Source of the DNA: a plasmid
Reading direction: 5' to 3' (one strand)
Sequence record: NZ_CP104760.1
DNA length: 64,000 nucleotides
Of this stretch, positions 24,943 to 60,022 are shown in pieces. Within the stretch, counting starts at the first letter, position 1. Each line of letters starts with the position of its first letter. The translations under genes and the position numbers were made by a program. The notes under the pieces were generated by a model, which worked only from the letters and a program-made list of their open reading frames with translations, made no database searches and was not told the DNA's origin.

Positions 24943-27395
<2,453 letters not shown>

Positions 27396-27755
27396 TGCTT
27401 TCCTCTCCGCTTGCTCACTCTTGCCCGCATCGCCGCAGGCAGACTCCGGCGACCACTATGGGAAAGGTTCAGTCGCCGCACATCCTCCGCCGTGGACGGT
27501 TTAGCTGGGGGATGAGAGAGGAGGAGGAGATCGTCGCGCAGGACGGTGCGAAGGCGGCAACCTGCTGTTTTTTGTGATCGAACGCGCAGAGTCGCGGCGA
27601 CGAGAGTGTGCGCCAGCCCGTGATAACGGTGCCGTTTTGCAACGGCGATCACGGCTTTGCGTCAGCAGGCGTAGAGTGCGGGAGGATGAGAAGCCGCAGC
27701 GGATCGCCACAATGTGCGGGAAAACGATTTCCGTTTCCGCTAACAGGATGGAGTT
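27396..27755. promoter_or_regulatory. divergent malK / malE control region with MalT-box-like motifs (GGAGGA/GGATGA) and CRP half-sites
   Basis: CATCCTCC (27461-27468), GGGGATGAGAGAGGAGGAGGAG (~27498-27520), GGGAGGATGAG (~27673-27683), TGTGATCGAA; individual site calls are uncertain. Confidence 0.55.
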
Positions 27756-28946
27756 ATGAAAATGAAAACCGGCGCACGTATTTTTGCCCTTTCCGCCCTT
27801 ACGGCCATGCTGTTTTCGGCCTCGGCAATCGCGAAGATAGAAGAGGGAAAACTGGTTATCTGGATCAACGGCGACAAAGGCTATAACGGGCTCGCCGAGG
27901 TGGGTAAAAAGTTTGAGCAGGATACCGGCATTAAAGTGACGGTAGAGCATCCGGATAAGATGGAAGAGAAGTATCCGCAGGTGGCCGCCACCGGCGACGG
28001 CCCGGATATTATCTTCTGGGCGCACGACCGTTTTGGCGGCTACGCCCAGTCAGGCCTGCTGGCGGAGATTTCGCCGGATAAAAGCTTCCAGGAGAAGCTC
28101 TTTCCCTTCACCTGGGATGCGGTGCGCTTTAACGGCAAGCTGATTGGCTATCCCGTGTCGGTCGAATCGCTGTCGCTGATTTACAACAAAGACCTGCTGC
28201 CCACTCCGCCGAAAAGCTGGGAAGAGATGGCGGCCGTCGACAAGCAGCTGCGCGCGAAAGGCAAAAGCGCCATTATGTTCAACCTGCAGGAACCCTATTT
28301 CACCTGGCCGCTGCTGGCCGCAGGCGGCGCTTACGCCTTTAAAAAGACCGACAGCGGCTACGACGTTAAAGACACCGGCGTAGATAACGCTGGCGCGAAG
28401 GCGGGCATGCAATTCCTTGTCGATCAGGTCAAAGCCAAAACCCTCAACGCCGACACCGATTACTCTATCGCTGAAGCCGCCTTCAATAAGGGGCAGACCG
28501 CGATGACCATCAACGGCCCCTGGGCCTGGAGCAATATCGACAAGAGCGGCATCAACTATGGCGTAACGCTGCTGCCGACCCTCAACGGCAAGCCATCGAA
28601 AACTTTTGTTGGCGTGCTCAGCGCAGGCATCAACGCGGCCAGCCCGAATAAAGAGCTGGCGAAAGAGTTCCTGGAAAACTACCTGCTGACCGACGCCGGT
28701 CTGGACGCGGTGAACAAAGATAAGCCGCTGGGCGCGGTGACGCTGAAGTCGTTCCAGCAGACGCTGGAAAAAGATGAGCGTATCGCCGCCACCATGAACA
28801 ACGCGCGCAGCGGCGACATTATGCCAAATGTTCCGCAGATGGCGGCGTTCTGGTATGCGATGCGCACCGCCACGCTTAACGCCCTGAGCGGTCGCCAGAG
28901 CGTAGACGCCGCGCTGAAAGATGCGCAGGCGCGCCTGAATAAGTAA
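27756..28946 (+). CDS. malE: periplasmic maltose-binding protein MalE
   Basis: 396 aa; [46 protein letters not shown] collinear with E. coli MalE. Confidence 0.95.
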
Positions 28947-29004
28947 TGCCCCCTCGAAGCCGGCTTGCGCCGGCTTATCACTGGCTGTTAAGGAACACCG
29001 AATC

Positions 29005-30537
29005 ATGTCAGGAAAACCGAAAACAGGAGGCGCCAGCCAGCTGCTGAAGCGCGTTCTCGTCGGGATCTGCTGTCTGCTGGTCGGCTACCTTCTGGTGCTG
29101 ATGTATGCGCAGGGCGAATATCTGTTTGCGCTGGTGACGCTGATTGTCAGCGCGGCGGGCATCTGGATTTACGCTAACCGGCGCGCCTATGCCTGGCGCT
29201 ATGTCTATCCCGGCCTCGCCGGTATGGCGCTGTTTGTGCTCTTCCCCCTCGCCTGCACCGTGGCGATCGCTTTTACCAACTACAGCAGTACCAACCAGCT
29301 TACCCAGGCGCGCGCGCAGCAGGTGCTGCTGAGCCGTCAGTATCAGGACGGCGCGGGAATGAACTTCGCGCTCTATCCGGCGGGCAGCCGCTGGCAGCTG
29401 CTGTTAGCCAGCGAGAGTGAAAATTACGTTTCGCCGCCGTTCGATTTTGGCGGCGATCAGCAGCTCAGTATGACCCGCGCCGCGCCGCCTGCGGGCCAGC
29501 GCGCAACGCTGAAGGTCATCACCAGCAATCGCCAGGCGCTCAGTCAGATCCGCGCCCGGCTGCCGGACGGCCGCGAGCTGGTGATGAGTTCGCTGCGGCA
29601 GTTCTCCGGCACGCGCCCGCTCTATCTGCTTACCGCCGACCAGCAGTTGAAAAATCAGCAAAGCGGCGAGCTGTATCAGGCGAATGATAAAACCGGCTTC
29701 TTCCAGCGCGTCAACGCCGACGGCAGCTGGGGCAGCGAGCAGCTTAGCCCGGGCTTTACGGTGAATGCGGGCTGGAAGAACTTTGTGCGCGTCTTTACCG
29801 ATGAGGGGATCCAGAAGCCTTTCCTGGCGATCTTCGGCTGGACGCTGCTCTTCTCGCTACTGACCGTGGTGCTGACCGTCGCCGTCGGCATGGTGCTCGC
29901 CTGCCTGGTGCAGTGGGAAGCATTAAAGGGGAAAGCGATCTATCGCGTGATGCTGATCCTGCCCTATGCCGTCCCGGCCTTTATCTCGATACTGATATTT
30001 AAGGGCCTGTTTAACCAGAGCTTCGGCGAGATCAACGTGCTGCTCAACGCGCTGTTCGGCTTCCAGCCCGCCTGGTTCAGCGACCCTCTGCTGGCGCGCG
30101 CCATGTTGGTGATCGTCAATACCTGGCTGGGCTATCCCTACATGATGATCCTCTGCATGGGGCTGTTGAAGGCGATTCCAGACGACCTGTACGAAGCTTC
30201 GGCGATGGATGGCGCAGGACCGTTGCAGAATTTCTTTTTGATTACGCTGCCGCTGTTGTTGAAGCCGCTTATGCCGCTGATGATCGCCAGCTTCGCCTTT
30301 AACTTTAACAACTTTGTGCTGGTGCAGCTGCTGACCAACGGCGGCCCCGATCGGCTTGGCACCACAACGCCTGCGGGCTATACCGACCTGCTGGTGAACT
30401 ATACGTGGCGCATCGCCTTTGAGGGCGGCGGCGGGCAGGATTTCGGTCTGGCAGCGGCGATCGCGACGCTGATCTTCCTGCTGGTAGGCGCGCTGGCGGT
30501 GATTAACCTGAAAGCCGTGCGGATGAAGTTCGACTAA
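29005..30537 (+). CDS. malF: maltose ABC transporter permease MalF
   Basis: 510 aa; collinear with E. coli MalF including the periplasmic P2 loop and the EAA motif region. Confidence 0.95.
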   Translation: MSGKPKTGGASQLLKRVLVGICCLLVGYLLVLMYAQGEYLFALVTLIVSAAGIWIYANRRAYAWRYVYPGLAGMALFVLFPLACTVAIAFTNYSSTNQLTQARAQQVLLSRQYQDGAGMNFALYPAGSRWQLLLASESENYVSPPFDFGGDQQLSMTRAAPPAGQRATLKVITSNRQALSQIRARLPDGRELVMSSLRQFSGTRPLYLLTADQQLKNQQSGELYQANDKTGFFQRVNADGSWGSEQLSPGFTVNAGWKNFVRVFTDEGIQKPFLAIFGWTLLFSLLTVVLTVAVGMVLACLVQWEALKGKAIYRVMLILPYAVPAFISILIFKGLFNQSFGEINVLLNALFGFQPAWFSDPLLARAMLVIVNTWLGYPYMMILCMGLLKAIPDDLYEASAMDGAGPLQNFFLITLPLLLKPLMPLMIASFAFNFNNFVLVQLLTNGGPDRLGTTTPAGYTDLLVNYTWRIAFEGGGGQDFGLAAAIATLIFLLVGALAVINLKAVRMKFD

Positions 30538-30546
30538 GGAGGCGTT

Positions 30547-31437
30547 ATGGCTATGGTACAACCTAAATCGCAGAAGCTGCGTTTGCTGCTGACTCATCTG
30601 CTGCTGCTCGCGTTTATCGCCGCGATTCTTTTCCCGCTGCTGATGGTTATGGCAATTTCACTGCGCGCCGGTAACTTCGCGACCGGCAGCCTGATCCCGG
30701 AGCAGATATCCTGGGAGCACTGGCGGCTGGCGCTGGGGTTCAGCGTCACCCATGCCGACGGCCGCGTGACGCCGCCACCTTTCCCGGTGCTGCTGTGGCT
30801 GTGGAACTCCGTTAAGATCGCGGGCATCAGCGCGATTGGCATAGTGGCGCTTTCCACTACCTGCGCCTATGCTTTTGCTCGCATGCGCTTCGCTGGACGC
30901 GCCAGCCTGTTGAAAGGGATGCTCATTTTCCAGATGTTCCCTGCCGTTCTCTCGCTGGTGGCGCTCTACGCTTTGTTCGATCGGCTGGGGCAGTATTTGC
31001 CTTTCCTCGGGCTGAATACGCATGGCGGCGTGATTTTCGCCTACCTTGGCGGCATCGCGCTGCATGTCTGGACGATTAAAGGTTATTTCGAAACCATCGA
31101 CGGTTCGCTGGAAGAGGCGGCCGCGCTGGACGGCGCGACGCCGTGGCAGGCGTTCCGGCTGGTGCTACTGCCGCTCTCGGTGCCGATCCTGGCGGTGGTG
31201 TTTATTCTGGCGTTTATCGCCGCGGTAACAGAGGTGCCTGTCGCCTCGCTGCTGCTGCGGGACGTTAACAGCTATACCCTGGCGGTCGGTATGCAGCAGT
31301 ATCTGAATCCACAGAACTATCTGTGGGGGGACTTCGCTGCCGCCGCTGTGCTCTCTGCTATCCCGATTACGCTGGTGTTCCTGCTGGCGCAGCGCTGGCT
31401 GGTCAGCGGCCTGACGGCGGGAGGCGTTAAGGGCTAA
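30547..31437 (+). CDS. malG: maltose ABC transporter permease MalG
   Basis: 296 aa; collinear with E. coli MalG. Confidence 0.95.
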
Positions 31438-31495
31438 TCTCTTCATCAATGCAGTGCCACTGCTTCCTCAATACTAACCATAATTGAGGGTTTTT

Positions 31496-31519
31496 GGCGG
31501 CCTTCGGGCCGCCGTTTTT
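31496..31519. terminator. rho-independent terminator after malG (GGCGGCC-ttcg-GGCCGCC followed by TTTTTATT), flanked by T5 on the left so possibly bidirectional
   Basis: seen directly. Confidence 0.7.
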
Positions 31520-31659
31520 ATTGGGCTTAAACCCGGCGTTCGGCATATTCGGTGCCTGACAGGTTCAGCGCGCTGATGCCTGGCAGTTCAGATCGAGCGG
31601 GTACATTTGCCGAACGTGAGGCTTTTAATACGCCTTCGTACGTTCTGAGGAAGAGCGGG

Positions 31660-32085
31660 CTAAAGGAGTCCTTTTTGTGCAAAAGTCACCCGGGTCGCCT
31701 CATTAAGATCCATGCTTTTCAGAACGTCAGGGGAAACCCAGGCAACCTCCTGAAATTCTTCGTTAAACGTAATCGCCCGGTTTGAACTTATGCAGTCAAA
31801 TATAAGGTAAATCATGTAAATTTCTTCGGTGGCGCCGTCCGGATAGGTTTTAGTTCGGATATCATCACGAAAAGCCCAGGGTTTAACCTCGGTGATAAGC
31901 AGTTCCTTCCCTAACTCTTCCATGATTTCCCGCCTCAGGGCGATTTCCATCGTTTCGCCAGGCTCCATGCCACCGCCAGGCAGAGCCCATTGCCCCGGGA
32001 AAACCCCACGATCTGAGGCCATTTTACAAAGTAAAAATTCACCTTCATTTTGTATTACTGGGCATACGATTACTCTCTGACGCAT
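31660..32085 (-). CDS. nudI: nucleoside triphosphatase NudI (Nudix)
   Basis: 141 aa; collinear with E. coli NudI/YfaO ([35 protein letters not shown]...ALRREI.EELG). Confidence 0.85.
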
Positions 32086-32664
32086 GTTAGCTCCTTATTA
32101 AAAGGCCTGAGTTCCATTGGGATGAATACCTGTCACCACTTGATATCGAAGATATACCGGAAAGTTATCTGTAAATTGCTGATATTGCGCATGACAGTCG
32201 GCAATCTTTTTAAGCCTGGTCGCCGGTCAGCTATTTCGTGCGGACGTAGAGGCTTTCAGGCTAAAGCCTGCTGAACTGACGGAGCATAGCCACAGTCAGC
32301 AACAGCGTGCCGACAACGCTGCACAAGGCGCTAACTGTTTCGCCTCTTCTGTTACGCTGTCACGTAAAAAGAGGTGGCAAGGGTTGATTTTGCATTTTTC
32401 TCTAAGGCGCTTACGCCAGGCGAAAGAAGGAGATGCCAGTAGCCAGGCAGGCGTACGCGTTTGTACGGCACTGCGCAGGGACGCGAGAGGTTCGCTACAA
32501 GGTTTTGTGAAAAGTTTAACTGAATACCTCAGGCTTATTGCCAGGAAATTGTCTTTTCCTGCAAAGCGCTGATGAAGCAGACCTGTCTGTTTAACCGTTG
32601 CGAAGGTATTAAAGCGTGAGTGCTGCTGGATAAGGCTGACCACATCGCGTGGCCAGCCAGAGGC

Positions 32665-33750
32665 TTATTTCTGCGCCTGGTCTTTGCGTTCGTCGAGAGT
32701 CTGGCGATATTCATCCAGGAAGGGTTGTTCAGCTGGATCGATGCGATCCATGCCGCTGGTGAAGCGGTGCCAGTAGGGATAACGCGGAGCCGGACGCGTC
32801 ACTTTTTCAATGCGCTGACGCTGCTCATCGCTGAGGGTTAGCTCAAAGGCGTTCAGGTTTTCACGCAGGTGTGTTTCGCTGCGGTTGCCGACGATAAGCG
32901 CGCTGACCCCAGGCCGATCCGCCAGCCAGGCCAGACAGACCTGGGCAATAGAGGCGTTAATTTCTTTGCCGACCTGCTCCAGCACCTCGATAACGTTATA
33001 GGCGTGTTCCATATCGTGCACATAGGGTTCTGGCCAGCCGCTGCCCTGACGGGTCGACTCAGGCGCTTTGCCGTTACGGCTGACCGCGCCGGTCAGCAGG
33101 CCTTCGCCCAGCGGCCCCCAGATCAGCGTGCCGATCTCCTGGTCGAGCGCCATCGGCAGCAGCTCGAACTCTGCTTCACGTGATTCCGGCGTGTAGTAAA
33201 TTTGCTGGCTGACAGGCTTGAGCAGGTGTCGCTCGCTGGCGCAGCCCAGGGTCTTCATCATCTGCCAGGCGGTGTAATTAGAAGTACCGAAGTAACGGAT
33301 TTTGCCGCTCTTCACCAGATCTTCGAGCGCGCGCAGCGTCTCTTCTACCGAGGTGACGCCATCCCAGTTATGGATCTGATAAAGGTCAATATGGTCGGTT
33401 TTAAGTCGGCGCAGGCTCGCTTCGCACGCCTTGATAAGGTGGTAACGGCTGGCGCCGCTCTCATTCGGGCCATCGCCGAGCGGGCTGCGCGCTTTGCTTG
33501 CCAGAATGACATTGTCGCGCTTGTCGCCGAGCGCTTCGCCGACAACCTCTTCTGCGCCGCCCATGGAGTAGAGATCGGCGGTATCGATCATATTAACGCC
33601 GTGATCCAGCGCGATATCGATAAAACGGCGCGCTTCGCTGGCGTTAACGTTGCCGGTTTTTTCAAACCCCGCTTTGCCGCCAAACGGCACGGTACCCAGC
33701 ACGAATTTTGAGACCAGCAGGCCCGAGTGGCCCAGTTTCCTGTATTGCAT
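32665..33750 (-). CDS. aldo/keto reductase family oxidoreductase
   Basis: 361 aa; AKR signatures (MQYRKLGHSGLLVSKFVLGT...IDTADLYS...). Confidence 0.85.
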   Translation of the reverse strand: MQYRKLGHSGLLVSKFVLGTVPFGGKAGFEKTGNVNASEARRFIDIALDHGVNMIDTADLYSMGGAEEVVGEALGDKRDNVILASKARSPLGDGPNESGASRYHLIKACEASLRRLKTDHIDLYQIHNWDGVTSVEETLRALEDLVKSGKIRYFGTSNYTAWQMMKTLGCASERHLLKPVSQQIYYTPESREAEFELLPMALDQEIGTLIWGPLGEGLLTGAVSRNGKAPESTRQGSGWPEPYVHDMEHAYNVIEVLEQVGKEINASIAQVCLAWLADRPGVSALIVGNRSETHLRENLNAFELTLSDEQRQRIEKVTRPAPRYPYWHRFTSGMDRIDPAEQPFLDEYRQTLDERKDQAQK

Positions 33751-34266
33751 TTACTTTCCTCCTTTACAGCTTAAAAAGGCGATCGTAGTCGCAACGGTTT
33801 ACGCATGTTTAAGGGGAAAAGCGTAGGAGAGGATTAGGGGTGGTGCAAACATGATTGGGGCTTAAGGCAGAGTTTTCGGTGAAAAATATCTATAAATTCA
33901 GATTATTATAGGAATTGGTTTTGCAGGGGCTTTATATTTTAAGCAAGCGGTAAACTACTTTAATAGTGGTCTTAAACTGTTCTAAACCCATTAAACCCTT
34001 AAGATGGGATCTCATATGCCTGTTACCATTTAACGCTTGTCTGCATTCGCATAATGAAGAAATACGTAATAGGGCATGAAATTCGCTTAATGCTATTTAT
34101 GTTAAATCAAAGCCTCGGCTTGGGAAATTTGAGCATCAGACCTCCCTTAACTCAAATTGGGGATATAAAAAAATGAAAATCGATAGCTTATAAGTTAATA
34201 AATACTTTAGTAATAGTGGATTTTTTTATATATTGTGTTGGTCTGAACTACTAGGAAACATCGATA

Positions 34267-35409
34267 ATGTCTACTGCTATTGGAAGTATGGAAGAAAGAA
34301 ATCCTTCATTAGAAACCAGTTCTAATGATGAACAGTTGATTGATACCTTAAGTCAAAGCGATATAGGTTCATTATATATTTTTGTCATGAGAGGGCACTG
34401 GGATTTTTTAAGGGAATTTTTACGTAAAATTAATCTTGAAGCGGCAATGAGTAATGGTAGGTTAGCAACGTTTGAAAAGCTAAAACTGTCGATGAATGAA
34501 ATGAAGAAAAGAAACACCGTATCCTTTGAAGGAGTGATGCGGAGCATTAAGAAATTATCACTGTCACTATTAACTATTAATAATAAAGCAGTCTACCTCC
34601 TTAATATCCCAAGTGATTATTTTGCCGAAATACAAGGAAAATTAAAGGGAAAGGATAAAAAAGATGCATTTCATGTTGTCGACACGTCTGAAAATCTGAC
34701 TGAGTCAAATGAAAATCCTGTTTGGATTGATTACGAAGGGAACTATGCTTGCTTATTCCCCTCTATTAAGGAAGCGAATAAAAGAGTAAAACTGGATCCC
34801 AAAAATATACCAGGAATGGAAATGTTTGATTCATTATATGGCTTTGAAACCAAAAAAAATCAGTATATTGACTGCCTGATTATTAAAAATAATAAAGCTT
34901 ATTTGTTAATCGATGTTACTGATGAAGATAAGGCAGACTTTTGTTTAGAGGCTAAACTTAAAACTTTGCCAAGATTAAAAATAGAATTAGATAAATTAAA
35001 GAAAACTCAGCCCATTGAAACAAAAGATATATTCAATGTGATTGAAAAGGTTTGCATCCAATCAGAATCACCTTATAAAGAAAGTAATTATTCTGTTCAT
35101 GAAATGGATTTCGTAAGTCCGGAGCTTTCACGATATTCTGGAAGTAAATCACCAAATAGACCTGATATTAGAAATGATGCATTTAATAAAGCGGGGCTAC
35201 AAAAAACCAAAAGCTCATTAATATATTATAAAGTGTCATTCAACTTCGATAGGCGGCACCCAGTGGTGGGCTTTCCTTATAAACTTATTGTGGGAATACC
35301 TGGAACTTATAAAAGAGCAGCTACTGGAAATGGGCGGGTGGATTATTTTTTATCAAATAATTTCTTTACCGTTGATGATTTTAATTTAATTGAACCTTTG
35401 ATTTTCTAA
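34267..35409 (+). CDS. hypothetical protein (first gene of an AT-rich three-gene operon); no recognisable domain
   Basis: 380-aa ORF; AT-rich, Lys/Asn/Ile-rich composition; no P-loop; stop 2 nt before the start of the next gene. Confidence 0.6.
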   Translation: MSTAIGSMEERNPSLETSSNDEQLIDTLSQSDIGSLYIFVMRGHWDFLREFLRKINLEAAMSNGRLATFEKLKLSMNEMKKRNTVSFEGVMRSIKKLSLSLLTINNKAVYLLNIPSDYFAEIQGKLKGKDKKDAFHVVDTSENLTESNENPVWIDYEGNYACLFPSIKEANKRVKLDPKNIPGMEMFDSLYGFETKKNQYIDCLIIKNNKAYLLIDVTDEDKADFCLEAKLKTLPRLKIELDKLKKTQPIETKDIFNVIEKVCIQSESPYKESNYSVHEMDFVSPELSRYSGSKSPNRPDIRNDAFNKAGLQKTKSSLIYYKVSFNFDRRHPVVGFPYKLIVGIPGTYKRAATGNGRVDYFLSNNFFTVDDFNLIEPLIF

Positions 35410-35411
35410 CT

Positions 35412-35855
35412 ATGAATATAGATGGATGCATAAAGCTACTAAAAGGTAGAATCTCATCATTACTTATATATGATGAGATTGAACAAGATCTGATAAAATT
35501 TGCATCAAAAGTTTTAGAGCTAAATGATGATGCGAATAGCATCATTTTAACTAAAGTTTTGATAGAAAAGATAATTAAAGAATACGGTATTGAGTTAAAT
35601 TATTTAAAGATAATTACAGCGCTAACGCATCCAGATGTTGATTTTCTAAGATTAGAATATCTTTTGTTTATCGATGATGAAAGTATAGAGCTTAGCAATG
35701 AAGATATGCAGCGTGCTTATGATCTTGGGTTTTTACGCAACCCCAAAGATCCTGATCTAATAATAGAAAATTATATGGAGCTAGTTGCGCCTATATTCTT
35801 GATTTCTAAAAACTTTATTAAAGAAATAAGCCAAGGTAAGACTAATGGGTACTGA
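35412..35855 (+). CDS. hypothetical protein (middle gene of the three-gene operon)
   Basis: 147-aa ORF translationally coupled to its neighbours (11-nt overlap with the downstream gene). Confidence 0.6.
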   Translation: MNIDGCIKLLKGRISSLLIYDEIEQDLIKFASKVLELNDDANSIILTKVLIEKIIKEYGIELNYLKIITALTHPDVDFLRLEYLLFIDDESIELSNEDMQRAYDLGFLRNPKDPDLIIENYMELVAPIFLISKNFIKEISQGKTNGY

Positions 35856-36480
35856 TATTTTTAGTCTGCTACAGAACATGAGCCCAGAAGAATTGAAAGT
35901 TTTTCAAAACATTACTATGTTTAGAGAAGCTAGAAAATCGTGGGAATGCTTTGAAGAAGTTTTACATAAATTATTACTTAAAGCCTCAGTATCGTTAGCT
36001 CAATCACGAAATCATCTTACCTTCGATAAAACTTCTGAGGATGGGTATTCGGATGTTTTGTTAAAAATTCTTGAACAGTATAAAGATTACGGATTAATTA
36101 CCACTAGAGAAGAAAATAATGGTGGCCATTGTGATATATCTATAAGTTTTGGTGGATTTAAATGGCTTGGCGAGGCAAAAAAAGCAAAAAGTTATGATTG
36201 GGTTTATGATGGTTTTCTTCAGCTTTGCACGCGTTATTCCACCTGCGATTCCTTATCCAAATCAGGTGGGTTAATTATTTATTGTGGGCAAAAGAAGGCG
36301 GGTACGTTTATGACATCTTGGATGGCTCACTTAAAACTTAAATTTAATGACATACAAGATCATGAAAACCATACCGAAGACCCTAATATAAAAATCACCA
36401 AACATACTCATGGTGTTAGTGAAAATACATATAAGGTTATTCATATCCCAGTATATTTGAATTACACCCCTGAAAAGTGA
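35845..36480 (+). CDS. hypothetical protein with a possible PD-(D/E)xK nuclease-like motif
   Basis: 211 aa; GGHCDISISFGGFKWLGEAKKAK gives D-x13-E-x-K spacing typical of restriction-endonuclease-like folds; by eye only. Confidence 0.5.
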   Translation: MGTDIFSLLQNMSPEELKVFQNITMFREARKSWECFEEVLHKLLLKASVSLAQSRNHLTFDKTSEDGYSDVLLKILEQYKDYGLITTREENNGGHCDISISFGGFKWLGEAKKAKSYDWVYDGFLQLCTRYSTCDSLSKSGGLIIYCGQKKAGTFMTSWMAHLKLKFNDIQDHENHTEDPNIKITKHTHGVSENTYKVIHIPVYLNYTPEK

Positions 36481-36487
36481 CTTGCAT

Positions 36488-36519
36488 AAAGAGAAATATT
36501 GGAAATTATATTTCTCTTT
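36488..36519 (+). terminator. 12-bp perfect-stem hairpin (AAAGAGAAATAT-N8-ATATTTCTCTTT) immediately after the three-gene operon
   Basis: seen directly 8 nt after the stop at 36480; AT-rich stem. Confidence 0.45.
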
Positions 36520-36742
36520 ATGTCATTGATTGGTATTATAACCCTCATATCTAAAATTTATTTTTTATAAATATTTATGAAAGCTAGGTTAATTCCTACG
36601 ATATGAAATTTTCTTTTTTTCATTTGCTTTTCGCCTTACTTCAACCGTTAATAACTATTTGTGATTAGGATGTTATTAGTCCAACCAGTTCAGTTCTAAT
36701 GTGTCTATGCACTGTAATCCCCATAAGTCGGTCAAAGTTCTA

Positions 36743-36845
36743 ACTTCATATAATTAGGATTTTAACAGCCAAACCTTTGTGTACTAGCGCTCTACTTCTT
36801 TTGAAAAGTGCTTAAAATCCTGACTTTATATAATTAGACTTATAC
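36743..36845. repeat. two direct copies of a ~20-nt motif (CTAACTTCATATAATTAGGATTTTA / CTGACTTTATATAATTAGACTTATA) upstream of the integrase gene; possible recombinase arm-type or att-associated sites
   Basis: seen directly at ~36743-36767 and ~36822-36846. Confidence 0.3.
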
Positions 36846-38116: not shown

Positions 38117-38386
38117 GCCGCTTAGTTATCCACAGAAAAAGTGGACAGCCTGTGTGAAACTCCGGGAAAAGATGCGACGAACTGCGCATTGATACAGGAC
38201 ATCAGTCTATTTTGGGAATGAATTAATACGCAAATACATCGGGTTACCCGCTCCTGATTGAGCTATGCGTTTAAGTCATATCTCCAGGCACACGAACTCA
38301 CAAATTTGACCGCATTTTTTCATAATGGTTCAGATGAATTCGCCTGAAGGTGCATGTTTACCTTCTGTCCTGTCGAAAGACTATGC

Positions 38387-53824: not shown

Positions 53825-54569
53825 CAGTCTCGCCGTGATCGTTTCTTTATACCAGCGTTGTCAGAGGCTGGCTGATGCTGGTGCCGACGCTCCTCAGACG
53901 GTGCGCTTGTTGGCCCGCCAGGCGCGCAACAAAGCAGGGCGTTTGCTGTATGCCGGTTTGCAACTGCCGGTATGCAGCCGCTGCCCGGTCCGCTGCCTAA
54001 TGAGGTGATATTTAGCCAGCGCGCACGAAGGTGATATAGAACGGCACGATCCTATTGATGGCTATGCGGGCAGGGTAGTCCGCGCTTTGTTTCTGATAAA
54101 ACACAAATCAACCATCAGCATCAGCAACAGGTGCACCACAGCGTAATTCTGCATTCTGGCTTTTCAGGCGAGCCGGCCTTCGCTTTAAAGAGCGACACCC
54201 AACAGGTAAAGCCTGCCGCTGTTAGCAATATGCTGACCCCAGTTAAGCCCATCTACTTCTCTTTTCACTACAGCAGAACGCTAACTGCTGATATCGATTA
54301 CAGCCATTCACATGTACGAGGGATAAAGCCATGTCTCTTTCAGCTGCCTGTTAAAGATAGTCAGGTCCATGAAGCTCCCTGGGAATTTCAATCTGAAATA
54401 AATTTAAAATTACTATATATATCAAATAGTTAAATATGAAAAAGGTGTGGGCAATCTGTACCTTTTCAACAGCAAAATAGCGGAGAGAAAGGGGGCTTAA
54501 AGTGATAAATAGCTAAAAGGAAGACGCCTTCGCCAGAGTATAAAAGAGTGCGCGCAACGCACTGAATGA

Positions 54570-54583
54570 GCAAAATATTTTGC
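54570..54583. promoter_or_regulatory. 14-bp perfect palindrome GCAAAATATTTTGC about 90 nt upstream of parA; candidate par operator within the promoter
   Basis: seen directly; type Ia ParA proteins autoregulate through palindromic operators. Confidence 0.35.
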
Positions 54584-54671
54584 TTTGTACAATTTTTTGC
54601 TGAAATCATAAAAATGTTGCACATAGCAGGATGATCTGTACACTGTCCTGAAATATTGCCAACGGAGCGGA

Positions 54672-55886
54672 GTGATGAAAAGTAATTACGGTGGGGTAGA
54701 CGAAACGGCGCGCAGGGCAAACGCCATGTTACGCAGCATGAGTGATGACATTATCGACAAGCGTCACGAATTTGGCCTCGATCAGTATTACCAGACCTTC
54801 ACCCGCAATTCAGTTGCTAATCTGCCCAGACTAAGCCGCCGAGCGGTAGAACAGGCGATTGAAGAAATGGAATCAAAAGGGCACGTGTTCGGCAAAAAGG
54901 ATGCGGGCAATACCAAACATTACGCGCTGACCGTTCAGGATGTCGTCGATATCTATGCCCATCGTAAAGTACCCAAGTATCGCGATATACATAAAGGTGA
55001 GGGGCCATTTGTTATTTTTGTGGTCAATCTCAAGGGCGGTGTATCCAAAACGGTCAGCACCGTTACTCTGGCGCACGGCCTGCGCGTCCATCCCGATCTG
55101 CTGCAGTACGATCTGCGCAACCTGGTTATCGACCTTGATCCCCAGGCCTCAAGCACCATGTTTCTGAACCATGCGAACAGCATCGGCTCGATTATGGAAA
55201 CCGCCGCGCAGGCGATGCTTAACGATCTGGATGCAGAACAACTTCATAAAGATATTATTCAGCCCACGATTATCCCAGGCGTGGATATCATTCCGGCATC
55301 CATTGACGACGGCTTTGTTGCCAGCCAGTGGAACGATCTGGTTCGCGAACATCTGCCAGGCGTACTGCCTTCGGAAGTGTTACGTCGTAACATCATCGAC
55401 CGTGTCGGTGATGACTATGATTTCATCTTTATTGATACAGGGCCGCATCTTGATGCGTTCATGCTCAACGCCATCGCCGCAAGCGATCTGCTGCTCACGC
55501 CGACGCCGCCCGCTCAGGTTGATTTTCATTCCACGCTCAAATATCTGACCCGCCTGCCAGAAATGCTCGAACAGCTGGAAGAAGAGGGCATCAATCCGCG
55601 TATCAAAGGCAATATCGGGTTTATGTCGAAAATGACGTCCAAACGCGATCACGAGATGACGCACGGCTTAGCACGTGACGTATTTACCTCTTACATTCTT
55701 GATGCTGCATTACCACGGCTCGATGGCTTCGAGCGCTGCGGGGAGACATTCGACACTATCGTCAGCGCTGATCCTCAGTCTTATCCAGGCAGCGCAGAAG
55801 CGCTCAAAAATGCCAAGCGCGAGGCGGAGCGTTTTACCCAGGCGGTTTTTAAACGGATTGAATTTGTCAGGAGTTCACAGTCATGA
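54672..55886 (+). CDS. parA: type Ia plasmid partition ATPase ParA (P1 ParA/SopA-like; N-terminal HTH plus deviant Walker A)
   Basis: 404 aa; deviant Walker A NLKGGVSKT; ~100-aa N-terminal extension typical of large ParA proteins. Confidence 0.9.
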   Translation: MMKSNYGGVDETARRANAMLRSMSDDIIDKRHEFGLDQYYQTFTRNSVANLPRLSRRAVEQAIEEMESKGHVFGKKDAGNTKHYALTVQDVVDIYAHRKVPKYRDIHKGEGPFVIFVVNLKGGVSKTVSTVTLAHGLRVHPDLLQYDLRNLVIDLDPQASSTMFLNHANSIGSIMETAAQAMLNDLDAEQLHKDIIQPTIIPGVDIIPASIDDGFVASQWNDLVREHLPGVLPSEVLRRNIIDRVGDDYDFIFIDTGPHLDAFMLNAIAASDLLLTPTPPAQVDFHSTLKYLTRLPEMLEQLEEEGINPRIKGNIGFMSKMTSKRDHEMTHGLARDVFTSYILDAALPRLDGFERCGETFDTIVSADPQSYPGSAEALKNAKREAERFTQAVFKRIEFVRSSQS

Positions 55887-56863
55887 AAGAAATGAAAAAA
55901 ATGGGCCGTACGCTGGGTAACTCGAGTTTTTCCCGCATGCTGAGCGAAACGGAAAGCACGCGCGTTTTCATCCTTAAGTCCGGTGCTGAAGCGCGCTTTG
56001 CCCTTACTAAGATTCTGCATGATGATATTGAAGCGCAGACCTATGTCGATGCCGCGGTGAATGGCCGCGACCAGGCTTTCCTTACGCCAGAGTCGGTCAG
56101 CGATATTTCCCGGACGATTAAACTGCAGCAGTTCTTTCCAGCTATTGGTCGCGAAGTGGATGGACGTATCGAAGTGCTGGATGGCTCTCGCCGACGCGCT
56201 GCCTGTCTTTACAACGGCACGCCGTTCGAAGTGCTTGTCACTAAAGATGACCTCTCGCTGGCTGATGCGCGCCAGCTGGCTATCGACATTCAGACCGCAA
56301 AAGAGCACACCCTACGCGAACTTGGCAAACGTCTTATGCTGATGTACCCGGAGAACATGAATCAGTCTGAGATCGCCAGGGCAGAAGGGCTTTCCGCGGC
56401 GAAAATCAGTCGTGCATTTCAGGCGGCCTCTGTACCTGACGAGATGATTGCACTCTTCCCATCCGTGGGCGATCTCTCTATCAATGATTACCAGACGCTG
56501 CTTGATATCGCGGAAAAAGTTGAAGCCCGACATGGCAGTCTGAGCGACCTGGTTGAAGCGGTACGTGAGCGCATCGAAGGGGATGCAACGCTGGATCCGC
56601 ATGACCCGTCGTCTAAAAACAAAATTATTGGCTTTATCCGCTCGGTAAACAGTAGTGCAAAAAGCACTAAGGCTGATAAAAGAGTCGTGACGGAGAAGAT
56701 GGCTGAGTTCGCGGATAAAAAGCAGTTTGCTCGTAAGAAAACAGATGCGGACAAGCGTCTGGTCACCTATGAGTTTTCGCGCATTCCTGCGCACTATCAG
56801 GCTGAGCTGGATGCGGCAGTAAAAGCTATCCTGGAAAAAATGCAGGCCGACAGTAAAAATTAA
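55883..56863 (+). CDS. parB: plasmid partition protein ParB (P1 ParB-like)
   Basis: 326 aa; start overlaps the parA stop (ATGA); ParB/Srx-like N-terminal region and HTH. Confidence 0.85.
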   Translation: MKEMKKMGRTLGNSSFSRMLSETESTRVFILKSGAEARFALTKILHDDIEAQTYVDAAVNGRDQAFLTPESVSDISRTIKLQQFFPAIGREVDGRIEVLDGSRRRAACLYNGTPFEVLVTKDDLSLADARQLAIDIQTAKEHTLRELGKRLMLMYPENMNQSEIARAEGLSAAKISRAFQAASVPDEMIALFPSVGDLSINDYQTLLDIAEKVEARHGSLSDLVEAVRERIEGDATLDPHDPSSKNKIIGFIRSVNSSAKSTKADKRVVTEKMAEFADKKQFARKKTDADKRLVTYEFSRIPAHYQAELDAAVKAILEKMQADSKN

Positions 56864-57004
56864 ATCATAAAAGATAAAGGCCTGAAGCCGTGAGCACTGC
56901 TCCGCACAGGCCTTGATTTTATGCTTCCTGAGCCGCAAAAACCCTGCCAAATACCCACCAAAATAACCTTATAACTTACTGTTTAATAAAAATATAGGCT
57001 AAAA

Positions 57005-57019
57005 ATTTCAACCTGAAAT
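57005..57019. promoter_or_regulatory. parS-like centromere core: inverted heptamers ATTTCAA-C-CTGAAAT, resembling the P1 parS box-A pair
   Basis: seen directly ~140 nt downstream of parB; compare P1 parS AATTTCAAGGTGAAATC (from memory). Confidence 0.45.
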
Positions 57020-57506
57020 TCCCGTCGTTTAACGTGCAAAAAGATGCAGTAATGCGCCTGGGGCTCTGTGACGACATTAAGACACCAACGTGACGTTGTA
57101 TCTTATTGCTCTTTCCTGCTCTCTGCTTCTTCTTGAAACTGTTTGCGTAAAAGAGGGAAATGCAATTAATGCTGTTATCTCAGTCAGTTAACATAGAATG
57201 CATTTCCGGCACCCGGGAACAGTTAACCGTTCACAATGTGTATCTTCACTATATCTCGTTTGTATTGTCCTGAATGTCGTTAACGTCAGGCGTGCATATG
57301 CAGGACAACAGGCCCTGTGCGCCGCGCATCGACTGAACCTGCACTGTAGTAAGTAAATTGTCTCGGCTAGCTTCTCAGGATGTGTTTAACGACGCATGCC
57401 TGCGCGACTCCGAAGCTGTTCTTTGAGAGGTGAAGACGATTGCTAACCTGTGCGCTCAGGCAAAAGCTGCAGTCTGTTTTTTACGAGAGAGAAAGCAGGG
57501 GGAGTA

Positions 57507-58018
57507 ATATAAGCTGTAGTGAGTGAGTTACTCATTACAGCTTATATTACTCACTACAGCTTATGATATAAGCTGTAGTGAGTTCGGACTGCTTTTCTGG
57601 ATCTGTATAAGCTGTAGTGAGTAAAAGGAGCACGTAACTCGCAGCGTAGACAGGGTGCAAGCTCGCGAGGCGATGATTCAGGTTCGTCCAGAGATAATGG
57701 CAGGCCATGAAAGAGGTGTTGCAGCAGGCGCTGGCAGTCGACAACAGAGTAAACAGGCTGTCTACCCTGATACTGGCAGAGGATGCGTGTAAGAAAGGAT
57801 ATAAGCTGTAGTGAGTAACTTACTCACTACAGCTTATATACAGAAGATTCGTGCCAGAAGAACGCTCTTGTTGAGACGAATCATCTTTTTGATTTAGCGG
57901 TATATTTCGCATTTACAGGTAACACAGAAAGAAACGGCAGCCCCTGAAAGGCGCCAGTAGTGGAGCGGTCGAGGACGCTTTTACTCACCAGAAGCTATAT
58001 AAGCTGTAGTGAGTAAAA
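57507..58018. repeat. array of ~8 iterons (consensus ATATAAGCTGTAGTGAGTAA, both orientations) on the 3' side of repA; incA-like copy-control locus
   Basis: copies at ~57507, 57531(rc), 57548(rc), 57566, 57605, 57799, 57820(rc) and 57997. Confidence 0.7.
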
Positions 58019-58071
58019 TGCCTTGTAAAATGGGCATGACGGCGCCTGCCTGCATTTACCATCCGATGCAA

Positions 58072-59094
58072 CTATTTGGTTTTAAATAGTTTTTCCAGAT
58101 CGTCCATCGTAATGCCCAGTTTCTCCAGAACCTCGAGCTTTTTCGCCAGTTCAGGATCGGGCGTTGCCGGGGCAGGGGATGTTGTCGGGATAGTTTCTTC
58201 ACTCTCGTTTTTAGGCGCTTTAAGCTTAGGACGCCGGTAATGCACATTAAAGAAGACCGCACGGCCTCTCTGGACCTCGGTGTAGTCCAGATAGCCAATC
58301 TCCTTTAACTGCTCCATAGCGCGCCGTACGGTCTGATTTTGAGAGAATACAGGGGACTTCAGGTTGAGCCGTGCGCGCAACCGCGCCAGCGATATAGGAG
58401 CAGGGTTTTTGGGCAGGCTTTCGATAAAGGTATAAATTGCCTGCGCTGACTCGCGCCGTTTCAGTACGTTAATGGCTTTGAGCTGTAAAAGGACTTTACG
58501 ATCAAACTGATACAACTCAAACAGACGAGGATCGGCCTGCAAAATCACGATATCTTTCGCAGTGTCGTAGTAAGCAGACTGCACAAGGTGGGTTACGTAC
58601 TCTTTAGAATGCTCTTTGGTGTTTGCCGTGAACGAGATGACCGTACCCGCAATACGCTTCAGAGAAGGGCTTATACGCTCTCTGAGCTTCTTAGAGGAGC
58701 GATTTGAAGGTATCCCACAGAGCTTGGCAAACTCAACAAACGGAAGCTGTACCTTATCGCCGATAACTTTATGCTTCGCGAACGAATGGATAATGCCTAC
58801 CCAGGTTTTGAAATCGTTATCCATGTCCAGCCGGGGGCCGACAATTTCGACTTTATCAAAGCCTTCCGCTTTAGCCAGCGAAAGCCGGGACAGCTCTTCA
58901 GTCGCATCCGTCACTGACATGGTATTTTTTTTGCTATTTTTTAGCGACTTAAGGGTAGGAACAAAAACACCGAGCCTCATAAGCGCAACCGGCTGCACCG
59001 TATTATTGGCATTGGGCGTCAGCGTAACCAGCTCGCCAGTGGATTTGTCCAGCTCCTGAAAAAGAGCGTCAAGATCTATGCTTTCGTTATCCAA
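58072..59094 (-). CDS. repA: plasmid replication initiator RepA (RepFIB/P1-like iteron-binding Rep)
   Basis: 340 aa; strong resemblance to RepFIB RepA ([38 protein letters not shown]...); flanked by iterons on both sides. Confidence 0.85.
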
Positions 59095-59281
59095 AACAGG
59101 CTCCGGATCCTAATCGTTAACGATGTAACTCGATAATTTTTATACTAAAAAGTAGTAAAATCACAAAAAGCGAGCAGCTCTGTATAGCTTCTTCAGATCC
59201 GCTGAGCCTGTGGATCAAAAATGGATGATCCGAACATAACAAACAGGGCTGCGTTTAGCATCATGAAATCAAAGGTAAAAA

Positions 59282-59530
59282 TTATCCACAGTTGAACAGA
59301 GAAAACCGTGACTGAACTCACTATAGCTTATCTTGTTTGCAGATTACAGCTTATGCTTTACGCCTTATAGCTTATGCTTTGCTTGTTACAGCTTATATTC
59401 TGCTTATTACAGCTTATGCGATCACCCTTTTAGGCCAGAGCTGACAAGGCCTGCGACGATCGGGGATCTCTTTAGGATCTAATAGGGATCATATAAGGAT
59501 CGTATTGTTGGGATCTATTCAGTGGATAAG
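59282..59530. promoter_or_regulatory. oriR-like origin upstream of repA: DnaA box TTATCCACA, ~4-5 iterons (NTTACAGCTTATGC), a cluster of five GATC-containing 7-mers, and a second DnaA-box-like site
   Basis: DnaA box at 59282-59290; iterons at 59327-59420; GATC sites at 59465, 59476, 59487, 59498, 59512; TTATCCACt on the minus strand at 59521-59529; organisation parallels P1 oriR. Confidence 0.6.
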
Positions 59531-60022
59531 TTGATTCATCAGAGCGCTCCGGAGGCGCGATGACGACCACGATCCTTTTGACGCCCTCCTGAAGAGCGTT
59601 TTTTACAACACGCCTGACAACCAGGGAATCGCTCGCTCTGCTGCCCGTCTGGGCACTGAACAGATACGCCACGGTATCCACACAACGCTAAAACAATCAG
59701 CAGGCTTCGATCTCTCTTAACGCAATGATGCCACAACCCAGGGGAGTTCTGAGTCGTACACTAGCCGCCCTGGCGTTTTCCATTTGTTGTCTGGAAGCAT
59801 GAGTCTGACCGTCTGCTAAGCGTGAACAGCTAAGCAAGCCTGAGCTGCAGAAATCAGCTAATTAAGGTTCAGGTTGTAACTGCGCGGTAGCAGAGACAGG
59901 TAGCTCTTACGCCAGCCCACCTGTTCACGGATATCAAAGGGATAGCCTGACGCAGGAGTTATGCCAGGAAGCAACTGTCAGGCCTGATGGCTTTTTCGGT
60001 TTACACAGCTAAAAAGCGCCGA

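Follow-up and report, generated by a model that had tools for sequence, protein, structure and literature searches.

A RepFIB-type replication module and a P1-type partition cassette flanked by two parS-like sites on a Pantoea piersonii megaplasmid

Introduction

Does the segment spanning approximately positions 54,570-59,530 of a 64,000-nucleotide stretch of plasmid DNA (sequence record NZ_CP104760.1; the whole stretch is called the window below) hold a working replication and partition system, and what kind of replicon does it maintain? The original prediction, made by reading the sequence alone, described at this locus a complete module of the P1/RepFIB type, with an initiator gene repA, its origin, iteron repeats and the partition genes parA and parB, lying beside genes that are normally chromosomal. 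Two settings were proposed for it, a large secondary replicon or a plasmid integrated into the chromosome. The comparisons presented here lead us to conclude that the module very probably serves a low-copy, non-mobilizable megaplasmid of Pantoea piersonii as its functional basic replicon and active-partition cassette. Isolates of this species have come from human blood and from the International Space Station.

Plasmid Location and Sequence Conservation

The replication and partition region shares 99.7% identity across 5.3 kb with plasmid p277859 of P. piersonii URMC-2103A041 (NZ_CP115897.1), which is a circular, non-mobilizable plasmid of 277,859 bp. In addition, RepA shows 100% identity to the copy on scaffold6.1 (319,040 bp) of P. 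piersonii IIIF1SW-P2, the type strain. The remaining part of the window is 98.7-98.9% identical to p277859, with indels, and 86-88% identical to plasmids of 200-208 kb from two other Pantoea strains. Judged from the closed 278-kb homologue and the 319-kb scaffold of the type strain, the size of the replicon would be roughly 280-320 kb.

The plasmid-matching part of the window contains malT/P/Q, malEFGK, alsS/budA, a diacetyl reductase gene and an lpxL-like gene for a Kdo2-lipid IV(A) acyltransferase. The mal, bud/als and lpxL-like genes are chromosomal in many Enterobacterales, and this might suggest that the module is an integrated plasmid, or the remnant of one, among chromosomal neighbors. 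However, the region and its flanks are found at 98.7-99.7% identity on the closed circular plasmid of 277,859 bp, and also on the 200-208 kb plasmids of the two other Pantoea strains. No junction, integrase or truncation was found beside the module, and all of its genes are under strong purifying selection, as described below. An integrated origin was rejected on the strength of the closed circular homologue, and its probability is very small; of the two settings first proposed, the secondary replicon stands and the integrated plasmid does not. Because the matching sequences are plasmids and the mal locus is carried on plasmids in many Pantoea species (PMC3505739), the housekeeping-like neighbors are normal cargo of Pantoea megaplasmids.

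Positions 1-54000 of the window and p277859 are collinear, but large indels separate them. The URMC plasmid has approximately 23 kb of additional DNA between the mal block and the par module, and positions 25001-36816 of the window lie outside the main block that matches NZ_CP115897.1. No RNA family was matched at the Rfam gathering threshold anywhere in the window.

The conservation of the module was assessed against two Pantoea relatives. The synonymous divergence (dS) is 0.8-1.1 for repA, 0.74-0.80 for parA and 1.1 for parB, and the corresponding ratios of nonsynonymous to synonymous divergence (dN/dS) are 0.018, 0.007 and about 0.03-0.04. All three genes are under strong purifying selection, with an overall dN/dS range of 0.007-0.036. 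At this divergence the iterons, the DnaA boxes, the GATCC repeats and the box A and box B elements of the centromere-like sites are invariant, while the spacers between them are scrambled. The low dN/dS values and the invariant sites amid scrambled spacers rule out a degenerate remnant. Two outcomes had been named in advance as contrary to the original prediction, namely decay of Rep and its iterons and a chromosomal identity of the replicon; in fact the gene and its repeats are intact by these measures, and the region lies on a closed circular plasmid homologue.

It may also be asked whether the replicon is a true chromid, indispensable to its host and carrying essential core genes, instead of a dispensable megaplasmid. 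The large size, the metabolic and regulatory cargo, the plasmid-type replication system (iteron-type RepFIB), the non-mobilizable nature of the plasmid and a G+C content of 52.9% in the window, a composition that is not obviously foreign, would agree with this. The published account of the Pantoea LPP plasmids as domesticated replicons of copy number 1 (PMC12612815) points the same way. On the other hand, no essential gene was identified within the window, where the lpxL-like acyltransferase may be a paralogue. Closely related Rep/Par modules occur on plasmids of differing cargo and size, and related strains differ by indels of tens of kilobases. Chromid status is thus unlikely, and a megaplasmid is the preferred description.

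Some observations weigh against our conclusion and should be stated together. The plasmid location is read from the closed homologue p277859 and not from the topology of the contig itself. MOB-suite assigns the near-identical p277859 to rep_cluster_2061 and not to IncFIB, and the nucleotide identity of repA to its E. coli FIB counterpart is only 71%. Finally, a simple scan for sigma-70 and terminator consensus sequences gave no convincing promoter for parA or repA, the promoter-like sites being fewer than in shuffled sequences, so the promoters of both genes are placed only by conserved motifs.

The Initiator Gene repA

The predicted repA gene is present on the minus strand at positions 58072-59094 and encodes a RepFIB-family initiator of 340 amino acid residues, counted from a TTG codon at 59094, with the Pfam domain Rep3_N. 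Over the full length (340 and 339 residues, respectively), its sequence identity to RepA of E. coli IncFIB plasmids, including a plasmid of avian pathogenic E. coli (APEC) typed as IncFIB, is 79-81%. The identity falls to 68% for RepA of the SSU5 and Cyrano phage-plasmids and of Y. pestis pMT1 type, and to 49% for RepA of P1 and P7. Against the Rep proteins of further large replicons from Pantoea, among them the 528-kb plasmid that is co-resident in the URMC strain, the identity was only 65-71%. No NCBIfam model matched RepA, and a search of its sequence against solved structures gave nothing meaningful, the top match being prohibitin with E = 0.54.

The resemblance of RepA to the SSU5, Cyrano and P1 proteins, together with the homology of ParA and ParB to those of P1, raises the question of whether the module belongs to a P1/SSU5-like phage-plasmid and not to a metabolic megaplasmid. 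However, homologues of RepA occur in more than 5000 plasmid records, and its nearest relatives are the initiators of IncFIB plasmids. The neighboring genes code for regulators, oxidoreductases and proteins of sugar utilization, and neither the window nor the annotated plasmid shows phage structural or lysis genes beside the module. A phage-plasmid was rejected since phage genes were not found nearby, and we regard its probability as negligible.

The start of repA deserves separate attention. The arrangement GGAG-N6-TTG, with the TTG at 59094, aligns exactly with GGAGG-N5-CTG of the E. coli FIB rep gene. In FIB rep this CTG was proven by mutation to be the true start in a 2025 study, where most GenBank records were found to begin wrongly at a GTG located 14 codons downstream, and where TTG in place of CTG was functional (PMC11983097). 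The RefSeq homologue of the present protein, WP_271153548.1, has 326 residues and is annotated from a CTG at 59052, which is 14 codons shorter and occupies the position of the commonly annotated FIB GTG start. Furthermore, the alignment with P1 RepA, a protein with an ATG start, begins at residue 2-3 of the 340-residue reading frame. Because the TTG aligns with the proven FIB start and P1 RepA aligns from residue 2-3, the most likely start is TTG 59094, with a product of 340 residues. As argued earlier for E. coli FIB, the start that RefSeq gives for this Rep family probably misses the first 14 codons here too.

The Replication Origin

The origin lies upstream of repA and reads in the same direction, on the minus strand. 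Nearest to the gene is the repA leader and promoter region (positions 59095-59313), which contains three GATC sites at 59196, 59213 and 59227 and a perfect proximal DnaA box, TTATCCACA, at 59282-59290. The proximal box and the segment of about 100 bp that holds it, between the origin iterons and repA, recur in the Pantoea relatives, and the E. coli FIB origin lacks them; P1 carries CTATCCACA at the equivalent place. This Pantoea-specific segment possibly serves as promoter or as additional Dam control.

The next section (59314-59419) consists of five direct repeats, the incC-like origin iterons, in the repA direction. Their starts are spaced by 23, 21, 21 and 21 bp, and they share the core ATAAGCTrTA, while the outer half has diverged. 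In an alignment, all five match the upstream iterons of E. coli FIB, also five in number, position by position. These repeats had been described as a second iteron family. The repeats themselves are indeed present, but they belong to the same family as the array downstream of repA, with a common TAyAGCTTAT core and a diverged outer half.

At the far end of the origin (59458-59531) there is an AT-rich cluster of Dam-methylation sites followed by a distal DnaA box. Six GATC sites fall within 60 bp (59458-59515), and no denser cluster of them occurs in the window, which averages 5 per kb. All but one of the six are GATCC heptamers approximately 11 bp apart, or about one helical turn, and the G+C content of the cluster is 41%, compared with 53% for the window. 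The distal DnaA box, TTATCCACT, is located on the minus strand at 59521-59529. The GATCC repeats and the distal box are kept in the Pantoea relatives and in E. coli FIB, and the layout is that of P1 oriR. This section is presumed to be the DNA-unwinding end of the origin. Both DnaA boxes and the five clustered heptamers are thus where the original prediction had placed them.

The window as a whole contains 25 nonamers that resemble the DnaA box (TTATCCACA with at most one mismatch), compared with 9.4 expected from dinucleotide shuffles, and a second perfect box occurs at 38126-38134. This excess may be an effect of codon composition or a real enrichment.

The Downstream Iteron Array

An incA-like control array occupies positions 57507-58016, downstream of repA, with repeats on both strands. 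Approximately eight iterons had been counted there at first reading; eight 20-bp copies with a perfect ATAAGCTGTA core were found in both orientations (consensus ATATAAGCTGTAGTGAGTAA), starting at 57507, 57528, 57547, 57566, 57605, 57799, 57820 and 57997, together with a ninth, degenerate copy at 57981-58000. A 16-mer search of the 64-kb window for the iterons, allowing up to three mismatches, gave 10 matches, all inside the module, against 0.41 expected.

Two Pantoea relatives show no change at the iteron positions of the array, although their spacers have diverged. The sequence TTACTCACTACAGCTTATAT is common to this array and to the array downstream of E. coli FIB repA. The same iteron consensus, with about five upstream and about eight downstream copies, is found in relatives whose RepA is 84-97% identical, among them Ca. 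P. alvi, Ca. P. deserta, [Erwinia] mediterraneensis, Ca. P. haifensis and Kosakonia.

The Partition Proteins

The parA gene is located on the plus strand at positions 54672-55886 and encodes an ATPase with an N-terminal helix-turn-helix (HTH) domain. Its length is 404 residues from a GTG codon, or 403 residues from the ATG at 54675, which follows GGAG; the ATG is the more likely start. The Pfam domains are HTH_54 in the N-terminal section (5.8e-33) and AAA_31 (1.8e-22), a combination that defines type Ia ParA, and the protein is therefore of type Ia, as predicted. Its identity to P1 ParA is 53% over 399 residues.

The parB gene follows on the same strand at 55883-56863, and its start codon overlaps the stop codon of parA in an operon arrangement. 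The product, of 326 residues, is a centromere-binding protein that matches the ParB C-terminal domain PF08775 (4.1e-28, Pfam) and TIGR00180, and it shares 42% identity with P1 ParB. The NCBIfam scores of ParA and ParB are under the equivalog cut-offs. A large ParA with an N-terminal HTH domain and a ParB with a P1-type C-terminal domain, encoded in one operon, are the proteins expected of the P1par family. The operon is convergent with repA, in agreement with the first description of the locus.

The control region of the operon (plus strand, 54569-54671) contains a perfect 16-bp palindrome, AGCAAAATATTTTGCT, at 54569-54584 and the Shine-Dalgarno sequence GGAG. At window positions 54586-54645, the motifs TGTACAA, TTGCACA and TGTACAC are invariant in 10 aligned loci while the flanks diverge. 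By analogy with P1, these motifs are a candidate par promoter and ParA operator.

Two Centromere-Like Sites Flank parAB

A parS-like site downstream of parB had been noticed at first reading from its inverted heptamers, and this site is present. It extends over positions 56950-57024 on the plus strand and is collinear with P1 parS. The left arm contains a box B1-like TACCCA (56952-56957) and is followed by an element resembling the binding site of integration host factor (IHF), TAACTTACTGTTT, at 56972-56984; the P1 counterpart is TAACTGACTGTTT. The box A2-A3 pair of inverted heptamers, ATTTCAA-C-CTGAAAT, is found at 57005-57019, exactly 33 bp from the IHF-like element, and is followed by a box B2-like TTCCCG (57019-57024), for which P1 has TCGCCA.

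This description was incomplete, since a second exact box-A palindrome at 54385-54399 had been missed. It sits 270-290 bp upstream of parA and belongs to a second site, at 54381-54455 on the minus strand, which is an inverted copy of the downstream site with the same plan. Read on that strand, the upstream site has in order a box B1-like CCCA, a degenerate box A1 (TTTTCAT), an IHF element of perfect consensus (TAACTATTTGATA, 54420-54432), the palindrome ATTTCAG-A-TTGAAAT 33 bp from the IHF element, and a box B2-like TTCCCA. The distance of 33 bp between the IHF element and box A is the same in both sites and in P1 parS. Both sites contain ATTTCA-N3-TGAAAT followed by TTCCC(A/G), with a box B-like (T)ACCCA in the left arm, and each shows the inverted A2-A3 pair, box B hexamers and central IHF element that characterize parS in the P1par family. 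A single parS directly downstream of parB, also taken as a mark of that family, was not found; here two sites flank parAB.

The two sites were compared among loci of the same ParAB clade, defined by ParA at least 90% identical and ParB 71-100% identical. This set of 13 loci spans Pantoea, Mixta, a Pluralibacter metagenome-assembled genome and an 'Enterobacter' isolate. Every one of the 13 loci carries both sites, which are kept although the flanking DNA cannot be aligned. In most of the relatives box A1 is better kept in the upstream than in the downstream copy. The par cassette has at least three placements relative to rep genes in this clade: downstream of repA and convergent with it, as in the window; upstream of repA and co-directional; and downstream of a different Rep and co-directional.

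Two sites are often found as well in more distant P1-like cassettes, those with a CGCC box B. In a Pantoea par clade with ParA about 70% identical, a palindrome TTTTCA-N3-TGAAAA occurs 280-337 bp upstream of parA and none was detected downstream. Number and position of parS thus seem to vary commonly in this par family, and the sequences suggest that centromere position varies within the P1par superfamily. A text search of the literature for upstream parS sites in P1-type systems returned nothing relevant, the older papers on box B of P1par being outside its coverage. The upstream copy appears to be previously unremarked and is mildly new.

It is important to consider whether the upstream site is a second centromere at all. 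It could instead be a regulatory site at which ParB silences or tunes the par promoter, located about 200 bp downstream. The site does adjoin the conserved promoter and operator motifs, 270-290 bp ahead of parA, and the similar palindrome of other Pantoea par clades occurs only upstream of parA (-280 to -337). However, the site has the full B1-A1-IHF-A2-A3-B2 layout of a centromere with the spacing of P1 parS, and it retains box A1 better than the downstream copy. A purely regulatory role is plausible but somewhat doubtful, and the two roles can coexist.

A further proposal, which we put forward tentatively and consider rather unlikely as a whole, is that the par cassette of this clade is a portable, self-contained unit with a complete centromere at each boundary, the two being inverted, with a new box B specificity, T(A/T)CCC(A/G), and with the double centromere functionally required. 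If this were true, the pair might serve, for example, to load ParB to the left and right of the operon; very large replicons would then gain stronger segregation complexes, and parAB would be silenced. The paired centromeres would mark the boundaries for exchange of cassettes between Rep backbones, and the switch in box B, together with divergent iterons, would let two or three megaplasmids of P1/RepFIB type share one Pantoea cell.

Two hairpins with T-runs are found after parB, at 56880-56925 and 57086-57108. The first, ahead of the downstream parS-like site, is GGCCTG...CAGGCC followed by TTGATTTTAT; the second, past that site, is CAACGTGACGTTG followed by TATCTTATTG. Both are possible terminators of the par operon. 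The 480 bp from the downstream site to the iteron array contain no open reading frame of 60 or more amino acid residues.

Proposed Mechanism

The homology, the architecture, the sequence conservation and the plasmid location were observed in the comparisons above, while all biochemical steps given here are inferred by analogy, with RepFIB and P1 for replication and with P1 for partition. RepA monomers would bind the five phased origin iterons, and host DnaA would bind the box at each end of the origin. The two proteins are expected to act jointly in opening the adjacent AT-rich region of GATC heptamers. Re-initiation would then be limited by Dam methylation and by sequestration of the clustered GATC sites, and RepA would repress its own promoter. 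Titration of RepA and handcuffing of the origin by the downstream iterons, eight or nine in number, would hold the copy number near one. The downstream iteron block is the effective inhibitor in FIB (PMC11983097). The Pantoea LPP plasmids, which are RepFIB-type and described as domesticated, have a measured copy number of 1 (PMC12612815), and a similar value of about 1 is expected for this plasmid.

In the partition step, ParB, aided by an IHF-induced bend, would assemble on parS through contacts with box A and box B. The ParA ATPase would move the ParB-parS complexes apart on the nucleoid, and its N-terminal HTH domain may repress the par promoter.

Comparison with Known Systems

The organization described as P1/RepFIB oriR-repA-incA plus par is borne out by the 81% identity of RepA to the IncFIB initiator, the alignable origin and the P1-type ParAB. 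The combined label is right, and RepFIB is the more precise name for the replicon because RepA is 81% identical to that of E. coli FIB and the iterons and origin can be aligned with it, while the P1 iterons are unrelated.

The replicons of the RepFIB group (P307, F, pO157) show homology to the initiator over its full length, including a C-terminal extension that P1 lacks. They have five iterons upstream of rep and a control array downstream, as in the window; the two FIB sets, upstream BCDD'D'' and downstream E-K with shared sequence, correspond here to 5 upstream and 8-9 downstream repeats. Their GATCC repeats and distal DnaA box can be aligned with those of the window, and the start codon has the same position after GGAG. 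However, the codon is TTG in the window, whereas E. coli FIB uses the rare CTG after a good ribosome-binding site. The window also differs in the extra segment of about 100 bp with its proximal perfect DnaA box and three GATC sites, and in the downstream array, which has 8-9 iterons over 510 bp compared with five in the E. coli plasmid examined by an equal core scan. The adjacent P1-type par cassette is lacking in the E. coli IncFIB plasmid examined. By formal typing the replicon does not fall into IncFIB, as seen from the rep_cluster_2061 assignment of p277859 and the repA nucleotide identity given above.

The P1 oriR-repA-incA region (IncY) consists of DnaA boxes, five Dam sites, five incC iterons, repA and nine incA iterons, and the layout of the window matches it. 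The two systems also share the N-terminal HTH domain of ParA, a homologous ParB and a parS built from box A, box B and IHF elements at identical spacing. In contrast, the 19-bp P1 iterons (GATGTGTGCTGGAGGGAAA) are unrelated in sequence to those of the window, and the RepA identity of 49% lies under the value of about 72% or more to P1 taken for IncY (PMC10999674). Box B is T(A/T)CCC(A/G) in the window and TCGCCA in P1. P1 has one parS, downstream, while the window has two complete inverted sites that flank parAB; the par cassette is inverted relative to repA and convergent with it, and the element in the window is not a phage.

The Pantoea megaplasmids LPP-1 and LPP-2 (De Maayer 2012; PMC12612815) resemble the plasmid of the window in having a RepFIB-type rep, parAB and mal cargo and in being non-mobilizable. 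The identity of RepA to E. coli FIB is 81% for the window, compared with the published 65% for LPP-1 RepB and 63% for LPP-2 RepB. LPP-1 is defined by a core of 46 coding sequences, thiOSGF and crtEYIBZ among them, together with repA and parAB of at least 70% amino acid identity (De Maayer 2012). Our comparison covered the mal locus, repA and parAB, all of which are present, with the RepA identity to other large replicons of Pantoea at only 65-71%, as noted above.

RepFIB-type replicons on Pantoea megaplasmids have already been published (PMC3505739, PMC12612815), as have P1-type par and rep (PMC10999674), and the understanding of RepFIB and P1-type systems is unchanged by the present findings. 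The features that appear mildly new are the conserved pair of inverted parS sites, in which box B differs from that of P1, the use of TTG as start codon and the extra proximal segment with DnaA and GATC sites, which E. coli FIB lacks. The exact coordinates of the origin, the control iterons and the centromeres are useful for the construction of mini-replicons, for plasmid curing, in which the downstream iterons are the effective element in FIB replicons, and for the prediction of incompatibility.

In this last respect two Pantoea systems are of interest. The P. agglomerans megaplasmid pPagL15_1 is described as carrying a P1par-type cassette with a single parS, placed after parB; the box B2 of this site is identical to that of P1, which makes the plasmid incompatible with P1 (PMC10999674). 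The window shares with it P1-family ParAB and a parS of the box A, box B and IHF layout, but differs in box B and in the number of parS sites. The second system is found in the URMC strain, which has three plasmids, including the 528-kb p527820 (NZ_CP115896.1) with a sibling module in the P1 order: DnaA box, GATC cluster, five iterons, repB, iteron array, parA, parB and two parS. The array between repB and parA is unusually long, with about 20 or more CTGATTACAGTGAA iterons over 1.4 kb, and both parS are downstream of parB with a box B identical to P1. The identities between p527820 and the window are 65% for Rep, 57% for ParA and 43% for ParB, and its Rep shares only 66-73% identity with the loci compared. 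Because box B differs and the sites number two in the window, its cassette is predicted from sequence to be compatible with P1-type cassettes such as that of p527820. The coexistence of these sibling replicons, with different iterons and different box B sequences, would be a natural case of specificity divergence that allows two related systems to be kept in one cell.

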